From: Chloroflexota bacterium
GTDB lineage: Bacteria > Chloroflexota > Dehalococcoidia > Lucifugimonadales > UBA3495
NCBI GenBank assembly: GCA_028875055.1
Contig: JAPPGG010000014.1
Location: forward strand, 8,722 to 72,721
Direction of reading: 5' to 3'
DNA: 64,000 nt
Shown in pieces: positions 2,948 to 57,203 of this stretch. Position numbers and translations under genes: made by a program. The notes under the pieces were generated by a model. It saw nothing but the letters and a program-made list of their open reading frames with translations, was not told the DNA's origin and ran no database searches. Every line of letters starts with the position of its first letter. Position 1 is the first letter of the stretch.

Positions 2948-3093
2948 CCTGTGAAACCTCCTGCCATTTTGGATTATATACGGGAACCCATCTTGGATTC
3001 GGACTCCCGAACGCGGAATCAAGCCTGGACCAGGCAATCAAAAAAGTGCAAACCTTGCCGAACCTGAATCAAGCAGGCTATTAGTACGGGAAA

Positions 3094-52560: not shown

Positions 52561-52989
52561 ATGAAAATCCCCATGAAAGTGGACTATGGCGTGCGTGCCC
52601 TGGTGGAATTGGCGATGCGCTACGGGGAAGGGCAATTGCAGACCTCCGAAATTGCGTCCAAGCAGGGAATTCCTGAGTCCTACCTTGTCCAGCTGATGAC
52701 GACGCTCAACCGCTGCGGGCTCGTTCAGAGTCGAAGGGGGCCGCAGGGTGGCCACAAGCTGGCGATGGATCCCTCAACCATAGACCTGCACATGATAATG
52801 ACTACCCTGGACGGCAACATTTCTCCCCTGGACTGCCTCACTTACACTACCGACTGCATTTTTGCTGACTGCTGCGCCCAGCAGGAAATATGGAAGTCGG
52901 TAGAGGAAGCCATAGAAAACGTTCTCGCCAACATTACTCTCGAGCACCTGGCACAGAGGCAGAGGTATCTCTCGGCGCAGAACGTATAA
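52561..52989 (+). CDS. Rrf2-family transcriptional regulator (CymR/IscR-like)
   Basis: MKVDYGVRALVELA...SEIASKQGIPESYLVQLM...GPQGGHKL is the typical Rrf2 wHTH. C-terminal Cys residues are present (DCLTYTTDCIFADCC). Confidence 0.85.
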   Translation: MKIPMKVDYGVRALVELAMRYGEGQLQTSEIASKQGIPESYLVQLMTTLNRCGLVQSRRGPQGGHKLAMDPSTIDLHMIMTTLDGNISPLDCLTYTTDCIFADCCAQQEIWKSVEEAIENVLANITLEHLAQRQRYLSAQNV

Positions 52990-53084
52990 GCGCCTCTGAA
53001 ACCGACAGGGGTCTGGTGGCCTGATTACGGGCAATGCAAGGGGCCCGGAATCTGCGTGGATTGATCGTTCCCGTTTGTGACTGG

Positions 53085-53113
53085 TTGACAACAGATTCGC
53101 CCCGGAATAGACT
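53085..53113 (+). promoter_or_regulatory. candidate promoter TTGACA -17 nt- TAGACT driving the Cys leader / moeB-cysM transcript
   Basis: -35 at 53085-53090 and -10 at 53108-53113. The leader ATG is at 53125. Confidence 0.55.
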
Positions 53114-53124
53114 CTAGCTCAGCA

Positions 53125-53178
53125 ATGTATCGTATTCGACAAGAACGATTTTGCACGTGTACCTGTCCCCGCACATAG
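53125..53178 (+). CDS. putative Cys-codon leader peptide MYRIRQERFCTCTCPRT (attenuator leader ORF)
   Basis: I read it directly. ATG 53125 lies 12 nt after a TAGACT -10 box. There are three Cys codons within five positions (53152, 53158, 53164). The TAG stop overlaps the first G of a G-run that takes part in alternative hairpins ending in a U6 terminator. Confidence 0.5.
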   Translation: MYRIRQERFCTCTCPRT

Positions 53179-53205
53179 GGGGCTGGCTTACGGTAATTAA
53201 CGAGG

Positions 53206-53252
53206 CCTGCACCCGCCCAAGACGGGCAACCCACCAGGGGTGCGGGTTTTTT
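53206..53252 (+). terminator. attenuator terminator: CCUGCACCC / GGGUGCGGG stem followed by UUUUUU
   Basis: 53206-53214 pairs with 53238-53246 (9 bp including one G-U). An inner hairpin GCCC-AAGAC-GGGC sits in the loop, and T6 is at 53247-53252. It lies 137 nt upstream of the moeB-like ATG. Confidence 0.6.
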
Positions 53253-53340
53253 CTTGGCCCGCCTTGAAACGCCGACAGGCAGGGCAAAACGCCGCAGCGG
53301 ACGGCGGGTTTGCCAGCACCAAGTGGAATCGACTAAATGT

Positions 53341-53374
53341 CCGAATCCCTACAACAGCCGAATCCCTACAACAG
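53341..53374 (+). repeat. perfect tandem duplication 2 x 17 bp CCGAATCCCTACAACAG abutting the moeB-like SD
   Basis: Read directly at 53341-53357 and 53358-53374. The last G of the second unit starts AGGAGG. Confidence 0.9.
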
Positions 53375-53389
53375 GAGGATAGAGTCCTT

Positions 53390-54232
53390 ATGGCTCAGCA
53401 ACCGCTTGCATTGACTCCCGAACAGGTGAAACGTTACAGCCGCCACATAATCATGGGAGACGTGGGCAGCTCCGGACAGCGCCGACTGATGCAGTCCAAG
53501 GCCCTTATAGTTGGCGCCGGTGGACTAGGCTCTCCGTCAGCCATTTATCTGGCCCTGGCGGGCGTGGGAACGATCGGAATAGTGGATTTTGACGTGGTAG
53601 AGATTTCCAATCTGCAGCGGCAGATTCTCCACCACACCAGCGATATCGGCCGGCCAAAGCTCCAGTCGGCTATTGACAACATTCACGCCTACAACCCCGA
53701 CGTCAACGTCATTCCCCATGAGGAACGGCTGGAGTCGGACAACGCGATGGATATCATCGGCCAGTACGACCTGGTGATAAACGGCGCAGACAACTTCGCC
53801 ACCCGGTATCTGGTCAACGATGCCTGCTACCTGCTGAACAAGACGCTGGTGGACGGCAGCATCCTCATATTTGACGGTCAGGCGACCGTGTTCCAGCCTG
53901 GCCTGGGCTGCTACCGCTGCCTGTTCCCGTCTCCGCCTCCTCCGGGGATGGTACCCAACTGCGCGGAAGCCGGTGTACTCGGCGCCCTTACGGGCCTGGT
54001 TGGCAGCATCCAGGCTACGGAGGCCCTCAAGCACTTCCTGGGCATCGGAGAGAGCCTGACCTCCAGGCTGCTGCTGGTGGACGCCCTGAGCATGACCTTC
54101 CGCGAGGTCAAGCTCAAGCGCAATCCGGCCTGCCCCCTGTGCGGAGACAACCCTACGGTTACCGAATTGATTGACTACGAGATCTTCTGCGGACTGGAAG
54201 CGCCGGAAGTTGCGTTGATGGCCGACAACTAA
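53390..54232 (+). CDS. ThiF/MoeB/HesA-family E1-like adenylyltransferase
   Basis: RYSRHIIMGDVGSSGQRRLMQSKALIVGAGGLGSP, CYRCLFP, NCAEAGVLG and a C-terminal CPLCG. Start trimmed to ATG 53390, which follows AGGAGG. There is no rhodanese domain. Confidence 0.85.
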   Translation: MAQQPLALTPEQVKRYSRHIIMGDVGSSGQRRLMQSKALIVGAGGLGSPSAIYLALAGVGTIGIVDFDVVEISNLQRQILHHTSDIGRPKLQSAIDNIHAYNPDVNVIPHEERLESDNAMDIIGQYDLVINGADNFATRYLVNDACYLLNKTLVDGSILIFDGQATVFQPGLGCYRCLFPSPPPPGMVPNCAEAGVLGALTGLVGSIQATEALKHFLGIGESLTSRLLLVDALSMTFREVKLKRNPACPLCGDNPTVTELIDYEIFCGLEAPEVALMADN

Positions 54233-54285
54233 AGCTCGGCTGCTCACCTTAACAGCGCGGTAGAAGGCAGGAAAAAGCAAGGCAT

Positions 54286-55236
54286 ATGGTCACTCGCCTG
54301 GCATACAAGGGCATCCTGGCAACCATTGGAAATACGCCAATGGTAGAGCTGCAGCACCTCAGTCCCAAACCTGAGGTGCGTATCTTTGCCAAGCTGGAAG
54401 GCCAGAATCCCACCGGCAGCGTCAAGGACCGGATCGCCCTTAAAATGATTGAGCGGGCCGAGGCCGACGGGGAGATATCCCCGGACCGTACCATCCTTGA
54501 ACCCACCAGCGGCAACACCGGCATTTCGCTGGCCATGATCGGACGCCTGAAGGGCTACAAGGTCAAAGTGGTGATGCCCGAAAATGTCAGCGAGGAGCGC
54601 AGCCAATTGCTGCATGCCTACGGCGCGGAGATAGTTTTTTCCGACGGCGAGAAGGGCAGCAACGGGTCCATCGAAGTTGCCCAGGAAATGGCCGCTCAGA
54701 ATCCCCATGACTACCTGTTGATGTACCAGTACGGCAACCGGGGCAACCCTGACGCCCACTATGAAACGACGGGTCCGGAGATTATCGAAACCGTTCCGGA
54801 AGTCACCACTTTCGTAGCTGGCCTGGGTACCGGGGGAACTCTTATGGGGGTCGCCCGAAGCCTGCGGGAGCATAACCCGGACGTTCGTATAGTGGCGGTC
54901 GCCCCCGAGCCCGACGACTTCATATCCGGACTGCGCAGGTTGGAAGACGGTTATATCCCACCTATCCTGGATATCAATGTTCTGGATTCCAGACTGCTGG
55001 TGGGCAGCATGCCTGCCTTTCGCACAACCAAGGAACTGCTGCACCAGGAAGGCATATTTGCCGGCATTTCGTCCGGCTCAGTGGTTTACGGAGCGATGCG
55101 GCAGGCCGAACGAATGGACAGCGGCAACATAGTCTGCCTGCTGGCCGATGGCGGCTGGAAATACCTGAGCACCAGTTTGTGGACCAAGGAATACGAACAG
55201 CTGGAGGATGAAGTCCAGGGCAAGATCTGGTGGTAG
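54286..55236 (+). CDS. cysM: PLP-dependent cysteine synthase, CysM type
   Basis: IGNTPMVEL, NPTGSVKDR and EPTSGNTGISLA. The C-terminal tail DGGWKYLST...QGKIWW resembles, from memory, the actinobacterial CysO-thiocarboxylate/O-phosphoserine-dependent CysM. Confidence 0.85.
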   Translation: MVTRLAYKGILATIGNTPMVELQHLSPKPEVRIFAKLEGQNPTGSVKDRIALKMIERAEADGEISPDRTILEPTSGNTGISLAMIGRLKGYKVKVVMPENVSEERSQLLHAYGAEIVFSDGEKGSNGSIEVAQEMAAQNPHDYLLMYQYGNRGNPDAHYETTGPEIIETVPEVTTFVAGLGTGGTLMGVARSLREHNPDVRIVAVAPEPDDFISGLRRLEDGYIPPILDINVLDSRLLVGSMPAFRTTKELLHQEGIFAGISSGSVVYGAMRQAERMDSGNIVCLLADGGWKYLSTSLWTKEYEQLEDEVQGKIWW

Positions 55237-55336: not shown

Positions 55337-55377
55337 GAGCAGGTGCGGGTTACCAATTCGCACCTGCTCTGTTTTTT
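55337..55377 (+). terminator. rho-independent terminator after cysM
   Basis: GAGCAGGTGCG / CGCACCTGCTC is an 11-bp stem, followed by TGTTTTTT. Confidence 0.8.
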
Positions 55378-55456: not shown

Positions 55457-55485
55457 TTGAAAGGGAAATCGGTCAATGTTATACT
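55457..55485 (+). promoter_or_regulatory. candidate nusA operon promoter TTGAAA -17 nt- TATACT
   Basis: -35 at 55457-55462 and -10 at 55480-55485. Confidence 0.6.
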
Positions 55486-55592: not shown

Positions 55593-57203
55593 GTGGCAGT
55601 GAAAAGCGACTTTTTGATTGCATTAACACAGTTGGCCGCCGAACGTCATTTGCCCAAGGAGCAGGTGCTTCAGGCCATAGAAGTTGCCCTGGCCTCCGCC
55701 TTCAAGAAAGACAATCCGGTGGCTGGCCAGAATATTACCGTTACTCTCAACCCGAATACGGGAGATGTTAGCGTTTTTGCACTCAAGACCGTTGTTGAAT
55801 CGGTCGAAGACCCGGCCAGGGAAATATCCCTCCAGGAAGCGGTGGCCATCCGGAGGAATGCCGAACTGGGTGAAGAGGTTGCGGCGGCAGAACCCCTGCC
55901 GCACAACGCCAGCCGTATAGCTGCGCAGACAGCCAAACAGGTGGTGCTGCAGCGCCTGCGGGAGGCCGAGCGGGAACTCCTTTACGAAGAGTTTCTGCAG
56001 CACCGGCAGGATATCATCACCGGCGTGGTGGAGCAGCTGGAGTCCAACAGGACGATTACGCTGGATATGGGGCGAGCCCAGGCAATAATGCCCTACGACG
56101 AGCAGGTCCCGACGGAGCGTTACAAGAAGGGGCAGCGTATCAAGGTATTCGTCCTCGACGTGCGAAACGGGCCCAAGGGCCCGGAAATCCTTGTTTCCCG
56201 CAGTGACCGCGATATGCTGAAGCGGTTGTTCGAAATCGAGGTCCCCGAAGTCTATAACGGCACCGTGGAAATCAAGGCCATTTCAAGGGACGCCGGTTTT
56301 CGCAGCAAGGTTGCCGTCCATTCCACCCAGGACGGCGTGGACCCGGTAGGCGCCTGCATCGGCCTGCGCGGCAATCGCATTCAGAGCATAGTGAATGAAT
56401 TGCAGGGCGAGAAAATCGACGTTGTACCCTGGGACCCTGATCCCAAGGGATTCATCGCCCGAGCCATCAGCCCCTCGGAAGTTGTAGAGGTTGAACTCAG
56501 CCAGCAGGATCAGACCGCCATCGTTGTGGTGCCGGACCGGCAATTGTCCCTGGCCATAGGCAAGGAAGGCCAAAACGCCCGCCTGGCGGCCAGGCTGGTT
56601 GGCTGGCGCCTGGACATCAAGGGTCTGTCCGAGTGGGAAGAAATCAAGGAAACCAGGCTGCGCGAACTCGAGGAGCAGCGGCGGCTGGCAGCTTTGGAGG
56701 CGGCCAACGTAGCCGCCGAACCCGCGGCCTCTGAAGCCGAGGTCCTTGAAGCGGTGGCCGAAGCCGAAGCCATCGTCGCTGACCAGACACAGATCGAGGA
56801 AACGGCCCCAGCTACGGCCGAAGTCGCGGAACCCGCGGTTTCTGAAGCCGACAACGCAGCGGTCGCCGAGGCTGAGGCCATCGACGAAGAAGCGCTGCTC
56901 GAAGCAATGATCCGGAATGAGGAAGAGGCCCAGCAGCCCGACACTGAAGCCGAAGACAGTCTCAGCGTTGACGACCTCGCGTCCTTTACCCTGGATGACG
57001 TACTAGACGAAGACGAAGAAGAGGAAGAGGAACTCTTCCCCGAATTGCCTGAAGTTCCCATTCTTACTCCTGACGCCGGAAAGATTCGATTCGCCGAAGA
57101 TCTGGTTGGTGAAACCCGTGGCGGTGGACGCGGCGGACGCCGTGCCCGGCGCAACACGGGCGGCGGCGCCGGCAGGGGCGCCCGAAGGGGTGGAGGCAGG
57201 TAG
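55593..57203 (+). CDS. nusA: transcription termination/antitermination factor NusA with long acidic plus RGG C-terminal extension
   Basis: It has the N-terminal domain, S1 and two KH domains ([30 protein letters not shown]). The start is GTG 55593 or, better spaced from GGGAGGG, GTG 55599. Confidence 0.9.

Follow-up and report, generated by a model that had tools for sequence, protein, structure and literature searches.

A predicted cysteine-codon leader-peptide attenuator upstream of moeB-like/cysM and sulfite-reductase operons in SAR202 Chloroflexota

Is the transcription of cysteine synthesis genes in SAR202 Chloroflexota set by the supply of charged tRNA-Cys? The question is raised by a locus on contig JAPPGG010000014.1 of a Chloroflexota bacterium (GenBank assembly GCA_028875055.1), of which we analyzed a stretch of 64,000 nucleotides (nt), referred to here as the window. 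A noncoding gap of 400 nt (52990-53389) separates the gene of an Rrf2-family regulator from a gene for an E1-like adenylyltransferase (moeB-like) and a cysteine synthase gene (cysM). Both the gap and the family assignments of the three genes (Rrf2, ThiF/MoeB, CysK/M), first made from the bare letters, agree with what we found, the latter by profile matches. That sequence-only reading had further placed in the gap a short open reading frame (ORF) with clustered Cys codons, followed by four alternatively pairing segments in the manner of the trp leader. We conclude that the element is most probably a ribosome-mediated leader-peptide transcription attenuator reading charged tRNA-Cys, with a leader ORF predicted to be leaderless or nearly so. 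In the dark ocean, SAR202 is one of the most abundant lineages of bacteria; to our knowledge, these bacteria have no cultured representative, and we know of almost nothing that has been learned about their gene regulation.

Organization of the leader region

Direct reading of the gap confirmed the promoter, the leader ORF with its three Cys codons and the U-tract at the positions first proposed for them. The element and the two genes downstream of it comprise the following features, with Cys positions counted from the C-terminus of the leader peptide:

53085..53090, + strand: -35 box TTGACA (sequence reading and promoter scan)
53108..53113, + strand: -10 box TAGACT, 17-nt spacer from the -35 box (sequence reading and promoter scan)
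53125..53178, + strand: leader ORF MYRIRQERFCTCTCPRT, 17 codons plus TAG (ATG at 53125, TAG at 53176-53178)
53152-54, 53158-60 and 53164-66, + strand: putative regulatory Cys codons TGC, TGT and TGT, arranged as C-x-C-x-C
53162..53170, + strand: segment 1 (CCUGUCCCC), overlapping the Cys(-4) and Pro codons, pairs with segment 2
53178..53187, + strand: segment 2 (GGGGGCUGGC), first base is the G of the stop codon, partner of segment 1 or segment 3
53205..53214, + strand: segment 3 (GCCUGCACCC), partner of segment 2 or segment 4
53215..53227, + strand: inner hairpin GCCC-AAGAC-GGGC within the terminator loop
53238..53246, + strand: segment 4 (GGGUGCGGG), 3' arm of the predicted terminator
53247..53252, + strand: U-tract, T6 (direct reading)
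53390..54232, + strand: first putatively regulated gene, ThiF/MoeB/MoeZ-type E1-like adenylyltransferase (Pfam ThiF, 1.4e-80)
54286..55236, + strand: second putatively regulated gene, CysK/CysM-family cysteine synthase (TIGR01136 cysKM, 360.5 bits vs. a cut-off of 344)

The promoter scan scored TTGACA-17-TAGACT at 10 of 12 matches. The start codon of the leader ORF follows the -10 box after 11 nt, and transcription would start at about 53120-53122, leaving a 5' untranslated region (UTR) of about 3-5 nt. No Shine-Dalgarno (SD) sequence precedes the leader ORF. The SD of the moeB-like gene (53375-53380) lies 120 nt past the last helix of the element.

Three helices can form between neighboring segments. 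GUCCCC (53165-53170) pairs with GGGGGC (53178-53183) across a 7-nt loop, and this 1:2 stem is lengthened by CC (53162-63) pairing with GG (53185-86) past a U.U mismatch. The 6-bp stem of the sequence-only reading is hence present but too short, the full pairing being CCUGUCCCC : GGGGGCUGG. For the antiterminator 2:3, the claim that 8 of 10 positions pair between 53178-53187 and 53205-53214 stood; its length did not, since the helix is extended by GGCUU:GAGCC-type pairs. The terminator 3:4 was found as described, with 9 bp between 53206-53214 and 53238-53246 followed directly by T6. Fold energies in the window amount to -14.2 kcal/mol for 1:2 (53160-53189), -18.2 kcal/mol for 2:3 and -22.2 kcal/mol for 3:4.

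From this arrangement we propose the following mechanism. Transcription would begin a few nucleotides before the ATG at 53125, and the 17-codon ORF would be translated from the (nearly) leaderless mRNA. With Cys-tRNA plentiful, the ribosome would reach the UAG at 53176 and cover segment 2, and 3:4 together with U6 would terminate transcription at about 53247-53252. If the leader were not translated at all, 1:2 and 3:4 would both form and termination would be expected as well. With Cys-tRNA scarce, the ribosome would stall with one of the Cys codons (53152, 53158 or 53164) in its A site, covering segment 1 and leaving segment 2 free. In this stalled state, 2:3 would form before segment 4 is made, no terminator would arise, and RNA polymerase would read through into the moeB-like gene and cysM.

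Conservation of the element in SAR202 and related Dehalococcoidia

A protein-guided scan with one genome per species returned 80 loci, all from SAR202/Dehalococcoidia/Chloroflexota metagenome-assembled genomes (MAGs). Their MoeB-like proteins are 97-74% identical to that of the window, and the order Rrf2-moeB-cysM is retained in most. From an alignment of 59 elements (A1) we built a covariance model (R1) with the terminator-state structure. Searching with R1 detected one copy in 64 of the 80 species genomes (47-96 bits), always immediately ahead of the moeB-like gene; six of these loci were outside the seed (L009, L017, L020, L036, L042 and L055; 52-66 bits). On the 64-kb window, the model gave a single strong match of 88.9 bits, the element itself being a seed member, and no further copy; all other matches were weak (E >= 0.13, the next-best at E = 0.13). 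The 16 loci without a match are the most distant ones, several of them lacking cysM or having a very short intergenic region.

TTGAC(A) occupies the same place in essentially all members of the family, and the -10 consensus is TA[G/C]ACT, usually followed by C. Comparison of the ten closest intergenic regions revealed a small number of kept blocks, namely the promoter, the ATG, the last seven ORF codons with the hairpin, segments 3 and 4 with the U-tract, and the SD of the moeB-like gene. Everything else has diverged freely, including the entire stretch from the U-tract to the SD. The inner hairpin of the terminator loop is retained in close relatives, and distant ones carry different inner hairpins. 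Inspection of the alignment by eye located a T-rich run right after segment 4 in about 81 of 85 elements.

The same pairing logic is also found in unrelated sequence. An AT-rich relative missed by R1 (L046, 2823-2970, ATG at 2868) has the same promoter and spacing and a 15-codon short ORF, MKQISVICACMNLQT, followed by the segments CCUCC / GGAGGGU / ACCCUCC / GGAGGGUG and U4. The sequence-only reading had proposed looking for conservation in orthologous leaders, and these do retain the short ORF with its Cys codons as well as the stems, in which compensatory changes are present.

In the distant Dehalococcoidia loci L070, L071, L074 and L078-L080, other conserved leaders without a Cys ORF precede the moeB-like gene. 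In L070, L071 and L074, for example, TTGAAA-N17-TATTAT and, after it, a hairpin (GUCUGCGCCC...GGGCGCAGC) lie about 100 nt before the gene at 3001. These Cys-less leaders may be a different regulatory element.

The short ORF carries a coding signature centered on its Cys codons

In 60 elements compared, the ORF spans 14-19 codons, most commonly 16 or 17, and starts with ATG in 57 and TTG in 3. The start codon lies 7-11 nt past the -10 hexamer in 56 of the 60, with an implied 5' UTR of 0-5 nt, which upholds the near-leaderless arrangement noticed in the window. In-frame stop codons are absent (0/60), as opposed to 21/60 and 15/60 for the two remaining frames. There is some circularity in this comparison, since starts were picked as in-frame codons; the fixed distance to the promoter is independent evidence.

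Among members, identity over the first approximately ten codons is about 30%, no more than expected at random, while the end of the ORF is fixed as Cys-x-Cys-Pro-x-Thr-UAG. All 59 distinct peptides have Cys at positions -6 and -4. Cys(-6) is encoded by TGT in 34 elements and by TGC in 26, with no other codon used; its codon falls outside the hairpin or at its margin. For Cys(-4), UGU is used in 57 of 60, though UGC would pair better with segment 2. A third in-frame Cys is present at -8 in 16-18 members, and TGY triplets accordingly peak in frame 6 nt upstream (18/62, vs. 0-5 at adjacent offsets). The invariant Cys codons are separated by one codon (C-[T/A]-C), with consecutive Cys in few members, e.g. 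L009, L031 and L092.

Downstream of the Cys codons, conservation appears to be of another kind. Of 60 elements, 47 have ACA as the final sense codon, synonymous ACC, ACG or ACT being almost absent, and 59 end the ORF with UAG; a G comes next in every case (ACA-UAG is at 53173-53178 in the window). Pro (CCN), ACA and UAG thus seem to be conserved as nucleotides rather than as amino acids, which we attribute to segment 1 and the hairpin loop.

Two single loci deviate at the ORF itself. L042 (2798-2912) has a 2-nt deletion that frameshifts the short ORF, which in this long-read assembly may be an assembly error. In L007 (2765-2873) the stop codon is changed to CAG and four codons are added.

Both alternative RNA states are conserved

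The pairings were assessed on A1 and on a second alignment (A2) of 85 elements aligned by R1, a model fitted to the terminator state and hence without bias toward 2:3. Controls consisted of partners slid along the alignment and of 500 shuffles. For the terminator-state helices 1:2 and 3:4, 85-86% of cells are paired (85.4% on A1, vs. 36-52% there for slid partners). Double-sided changes affect seven to eight of their pairs; no measure is reached by more than 13 of 500 shuffles, and the covariation score by none (0/500). Helix 1 (1:2) is paired in 83-86% of cells, with three pairs changed on both sides, and helix 2 (3:4) in 85-88%, with four to five such pairs, e.g. A-U to G-C at columns 74/114.

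The competing helix 2:3 is paired in 89.2% of cells on A1 (29-51% slid) and in 93.2% on A2 (29-62% slid). Compensatory changes were found in 7-11 cells, a number reached by 13 of 500 shuffles on A1 and, with 11 cells, by 0 of 500 on A2. At the most informative position, G37-C73 is replaced by A-U in L054, L056, L062, L063 and L087 (counted as four to five sequences). This double change is needed by 2:3 alone, as segments 1 (U) and 4 (G) accept either base by wobble.

Ribosome position switches the predicted fold

For folding with a bound ribosome, we assumed coverage up to 12 nt past the first base of the A-site codon, the generally known footprint. The equilibrium probability of the terminator in the window is 0.64 without a ribosome, 0.00 with the ribosome on the Cys codons and 0.99 with the ribosome on the stop codon. 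Whichever of the three Cys codons occupies the A site, the minimum free energy structure contains 2:3 and lacks the terminator. A ribosome with UAG at that site covers segment 2, and the terminator is formed. The masked folding thereby comes out as the sequence-only reading had anticipated for the window.

For the family, the terminator has a median equilibrium probability of 0.95 without a ribosome; the medians are 0.41 and 0.29 with the ribosome on one or the other of the two Cys codons, and 0.99 with the ribosome on the stop. When folding was computed for the RNA before segment 4 is made, the mean probability of 2:3 was 0.79 with the ribosome on Cys and 0.09 with the ribosome on the stop, and the switch worked in 53 of 57 elements.

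A second operon with the same leader

An exact-pattern scan of metagenome contigs for the ORF end plus segment 3 yielded 25 loci. Fifteen have the rrf2/moeB/cysM context, and ten match none of these genes (L082, L086, L088, L090, L092-L094, L096, L097 and L099). The downstream ORFs typed in L093 and L097 encode NIR_SIR-family sulfite/nitrite reductases of 609-637 amino acids, followed in L097 by HemD (uroporphyrinogen-III synthase). The element is thus not unique to the operon for which it was first noticed, a paralogous copy preceding a sulfite-reductase/hemD operon; both operons belong to sulfur assimilation and cysteine synthesis. A tblastx comparison of the sulfite-reductase loci with the window found no genes in common.

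The ten sulfite-reductase-type copies share the promoter type and spacing and have leader ORFs with 3-4 Cys codons, e.g. MTTRINLFCRCTCTCPPT and MKLHPSIFCCCTCPPT. Their terminator 5' arm is shifted by about 6 nt, leaving the CCCUG half of segment 3 off the terminator stem. This half is still conserved, for which pairing of 2:3 is the sole explanation. Further copies were located at L106:2371-2472, L107:2359-2476 and L109:2353-2454.

Homologs of the reductase carry names from Chloroflexota, Dehalococcoidia and SAR202, and the lineage of the sulfite-reductase loci was judged from these names and from a contig of shared length. The homolog in L106 has the element upstream (49 bits) with the short ORF MICTAVSACFCTCPPT. 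L106, a reductase copy, and L025, a moeB-type copy, both lie on contigs of 3,922,041 nt and apparently represent one chromosome. Additionally, the named SAR202 MAG Io17-Chloro-G9 and another complete chromosome have the same arrangement of element and reductase. Comparison of these loci points to a small cysteine regulon in SAR202 that would comprise the moeB-like/cysM and the sulfite-reductase/hemD operons.

Counter-evidence and alternative explanations

A number of observations limit or weigh against attenuation by Cys-codon stalling. By itself, the window exceeds chance to a modest extent: the fold of 53118-53260 has z = -1.94 and is equaled by 10 of 200 shuffles, and promoter matches like the one identified are not unusual (3 found in 4 kb vs. 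2.0 expected). We consider the element to be far above chance because of its conservation, with one orthologous copy in 64 of 80 genomes and one strong match in 64 kb. Regarding the ORF, its predicted translation without an SD depends on leaderless-type initiation. TGY triplets in the whole variable part number 24, 28 and 13 by frame, without overall in-frame enrichment, and in L020 (2845-2954) Cys(-4) is replaced by Ser and one Cys codon is left. No pairing partner was identified for ACA-UAG, and the attenuator model leaves the invariance of this motif unexplained.

Further counterarguments concern the RNA. Covariation in 2:3 is modest, with the double changes confined to three pairs. A control with shuffled segment 2 still gave a 2:3 probability of 0.53, and part of the 2:3 signal is therefore composition, as G-rich sequence readily pairs with C-rich sequence. 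Only about half of the family loses the terminator at equilibrium when segment 1 is masked. The other half would need kinetic antitermination. The equilibrium switch, which works for the window, was accordingly dropped as a universal property of the family. Lastly, L009 (2806-2924) and L017 (2776-2894) have the hairpin without a U-tract, and in a crude scan intrinsic terminators in this genome and window were not in excess over shuffles.

The last two points also bear on the alternative that survives best, although we hold it to be unlikely: the Cys ORF senses as proposed, but the output is downstream translation initiation, Rho-dependent termination or mRNA stability, with 3:4 acting as a structural or stability element. 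Such an output would be in keeping with the experimentally studied Cys short ORF system, which acts by SD sequestration (10.1101/834739), and with L072, L075 and the sulfite-reductase copies, where the hairpin ends just 10-30 nt before the SD. It is difficult to reconcile with the U-tract that follows segment 4 in nearly all elements and with a distance between hairpin and gene that varies from about 15 to 250 nt across the family. In the window, moreover, the SD is 120 nt away and the intervening sequence is unconserved even in the closest relatives.

Could the end of the leader peptide do more than expose Cys codons? A very improbable addition to Cys-codon attenuation would be that this end (Cys-x-Cys-Pro-x-Thr, ACA, UAG, G) is more than a by-product of hairpin 1:2 and makes the terminating ribosome pause, depending on peptide or context, thereby adding a second signal to Cys-tRNA supply. 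If so, the pause at the stop codon might sense, for instance, free cysteine, a thiol or metal bound by Cys-x-Cys, or RF1 activity, which would amount to a TnaC-like sensor inside a trp-type attenuator. Very improbable, in our view, is that Cys-x-Cys-Pro-x-Thr-stop was selected as a peptide altogether, either for TnaC-like nascent arrest as a sensor of free cysteine, thiol or metal, or as a free micropeptide. The near invariance of the last six residues and UAG speaks for this explanation, as does Pro near the stop codon, which is a slow-termination context. Precedent exists in leader peptides that act in trans (peTrpL, PMC7298713). However, Pro, Thr and the stop are conserved as nucleotides and lie in segment 1 or the hairpin loop, and the remaining peptide is random in sequence. 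Also, a ribosome held at the stop would give termination just like one that leaves, and no regulation would be added.

Least probable of all is an RNA or DNA bound by a ligand or protein (a riboswitch, or an operator of the adjacent Rrf2 regulator) with an incidental ORF: two GC-rich inverted repeats of similar sequence, a CymR-like Rrf2 gene adjoining most loci and an unusually conserved -10 region (ATAGACTC) are outweighed by the absence of any Rfam match and of a conserved unpaired core (spacer, N-terminal region and terminator loop vary freely), by the presence of the element in 11 moeB loci that lack an upstream Rrf2 gene and in every sulfite-reductase locus, none of them with such a gene alongside, by repeats placed 40-130 nt downstream of the promoter and ending in a U-tract, and by the open frame, synonymous Cys codons and fixed start position that it leaves unexplained. 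The Rfam 15 search covered the whole window and gave no match at gathering score, including SAM-I, SAM-IV, SAM-I/IV and T-box, in agreement with the exclusion of known riboswitches that the sequence-only reading had called for. With E values up to 10 allowed, 52900-53500 matched isrK (16.5 bits vs. 50), a snoRNA and D12-methyl, all far below thresholds and at chance level.

Relation to known leader-peptide systems

Judged from sequence, the element shows every defining feature of leader-peptide transcription attenuators that can be tested in silico. With the trp, his, leu, thr, ilv and phe leaders (Proteobacteria; trp and ilvB in Actinobacteria) it shares late ORF codons for the pathway's own amino acid, four segments pairing as 1:2, 2:3 and 3:4, a stop codon just before segment 2, an intrinsic terminator with U-tract, and biosynthesis genes for the same amino acid downstream. 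In contrast to these classical attenuators, the SAR202 element is predicted to sense cysteine, its Cys codons alternate (C-x-C, C-x-C-x-C) instead of forming a run, its leader ORF has no SD and starts 7-11 nt after the -10 box, and it belongs to the phylum Chloroflexota. It has no likeness in sequence or by covariance model to any Rfam leader family.

The novelty of a Cys-sensing leader was overstated in the sequence-only reading, as Cys leader ORFs were predicted for Actinobacteria in 2005, shown to act in mycobacteria in 2020 and, in a predicted terminator-type form, described for cysS of Rhodobacterales in 2021. The mycobacterial polycysteine leaderless short ORFs act as translational attenuators; in the case studied, the SD of the following gene is concealed in an RNA duplex (Canestrari et al. 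2020, 10.1101/834739; Mol Microbiol 114:93). They have C-terminal Cys codons and head operons of cysteine metabolism as their first cistron, like the SAR202 ORFs, for which the (near) absence of a leader is predicted. Parallel control of several operons (a "ribulon") and the sensing of charged tRNA-Cys by ribosome stalling, established for mycobacteria, are what we propose for SAR202 as well. They differ in having at least two consecutive Cys codons, whereas those of the SAR202 element alternate, and in hiding the SD, whereas the SAR202 element has a GC hairpin with U-tract and no SD-sequestering duplex. Homology between the two is undetectable. We place the SAR202 element outside the mycobacterial class because its Cys codons are not consecutive, because it has no SD duplex, and because the authors explicitly contrast their mechanism with terminator-type attenuators (10.1101/834739).

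Similar in predicted mechanism is uORFC-8-2 upstream of cysS in Rhodobacterales, a predicted attenuator in which low Cys-tRNA leads to read-through (Brewer et al. 2021, PMC8632094). As in the SAR202 element, its AUG is conserved, the first of two stems contains two Cys codons (UGC/UGU), and the motif ends in a U-run. By its description it is set apart, as it controls a tRNA synthetase gene, has tandem Cys codons (14-15), occurs in alpha-proteobacteria and belongs to another sequence family. Candidate Cys leader peptides have also been described in Actinobacteria, as short ORFs with Cys near the stop before cys/cbs operons (Seliverstov et al. 2005, PMC1262725). These are "without obvious terminators", and Rho-dependent termination was suggested (PMC1262725); the SAR202 element has an explicit terminator and antiterminator, both of them conserved.

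As an idea, cysteine sensing by attenuation at an intrinsic terminator is not new, given the 2021 cysS short ORF of Rhodobacterales. In the literature searched we found no report from Chloroflexota/SAR202 and no terminator-type Cys attenuator on cysteine-biosynthesis operons; an earlier mention of a Chloroflexi Cys attenuator in Lopatovskaya et al. 2010 is possible. What would be new is the extension of terminator-type attenuation, by a textbook mechanism, to cysteine biosynthesis operons in an abundant uncultured lineage. Cysteine would join the trp, his, leu, thr, ilv and phe set, beside the mycobacterial translational short ORFs and the cysS short ORF of Rhodobacterales. For SAR202, the element represents a family-wide candidate cis-regulatory RNA and predicts both leaderless-type translation and coupling of transcription and translation in these bacteria. 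Further, metagenomes can be annotated for the element with the covariance model and with the peptide signature (C-x-C-P-x-T, then UAG-GGGG).

The shared control may help to assign the moeB-like gene to sulfur-carrier-dependent cysteine synthesis and not to molybdopterin or thiamin. The E1-like protein matches NCBIfam MoeB/MoeZ/SAMP-E1 models, every one below its equivalog cut-off. A gene for a ThiS/CysO-like sulfur carrier was found neither in nor beside the moeB-like/cysM operon (window 53390-55236; L040:3001-5101; L072:734-3070). Since the locus has no carrier gene, the proposed assignment to carrier-dependent synthesis rests on common regulation and on analogy to CysO/MoeZ/CysM of Mycobacterium. 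In L072, a repeat-rich membrane protein of 172 amino acids sits between the moeB-like gene and cysM.

Neighboring genes and minor observations

The surroundings of the element in the window comprise, in addition:

52561..52989, + strand: Rrf2-family regulator gene (Pfam Rrf2, 1.5e-35), the upstream neighbor and not a part of the attenuator
55337-55369: strong intrinsic terminator closing the cysM operon, a 15-bp stem followed by TGTTTTTT
55457-55485: promoter-like site ahead of nusA, TTGAAA-17-TATACT, with TG upstream
55593-57203: nusA

The best specific NCBIfam model for the Rrf2 protein is CymR (91 bits, under the cut-off of 195), a model of cysteine metabolism, and the protein has a Cys cluster (DCLTYTTDCIFADCC) of the type that binds Fe-S in IscR-type proteins. 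An operator for the regulator was sought and none was identified. The idea of an Rrf2 operator within the element was rejected, as no extended palindrome is common to the family and the element occurs without a neighboring Rrf2 gene. Given its CymR likeness and its Cys cluster, the regulator may add a second, protein-based layer of control to the operon.

Directly 5' of the moeB-like SD, the window has an exact 17-nt tandem duplication (CCGAATCCCTACAACAG, two copies, 53341-53374). It is missing in the closest relative (L001) and is thus recent.

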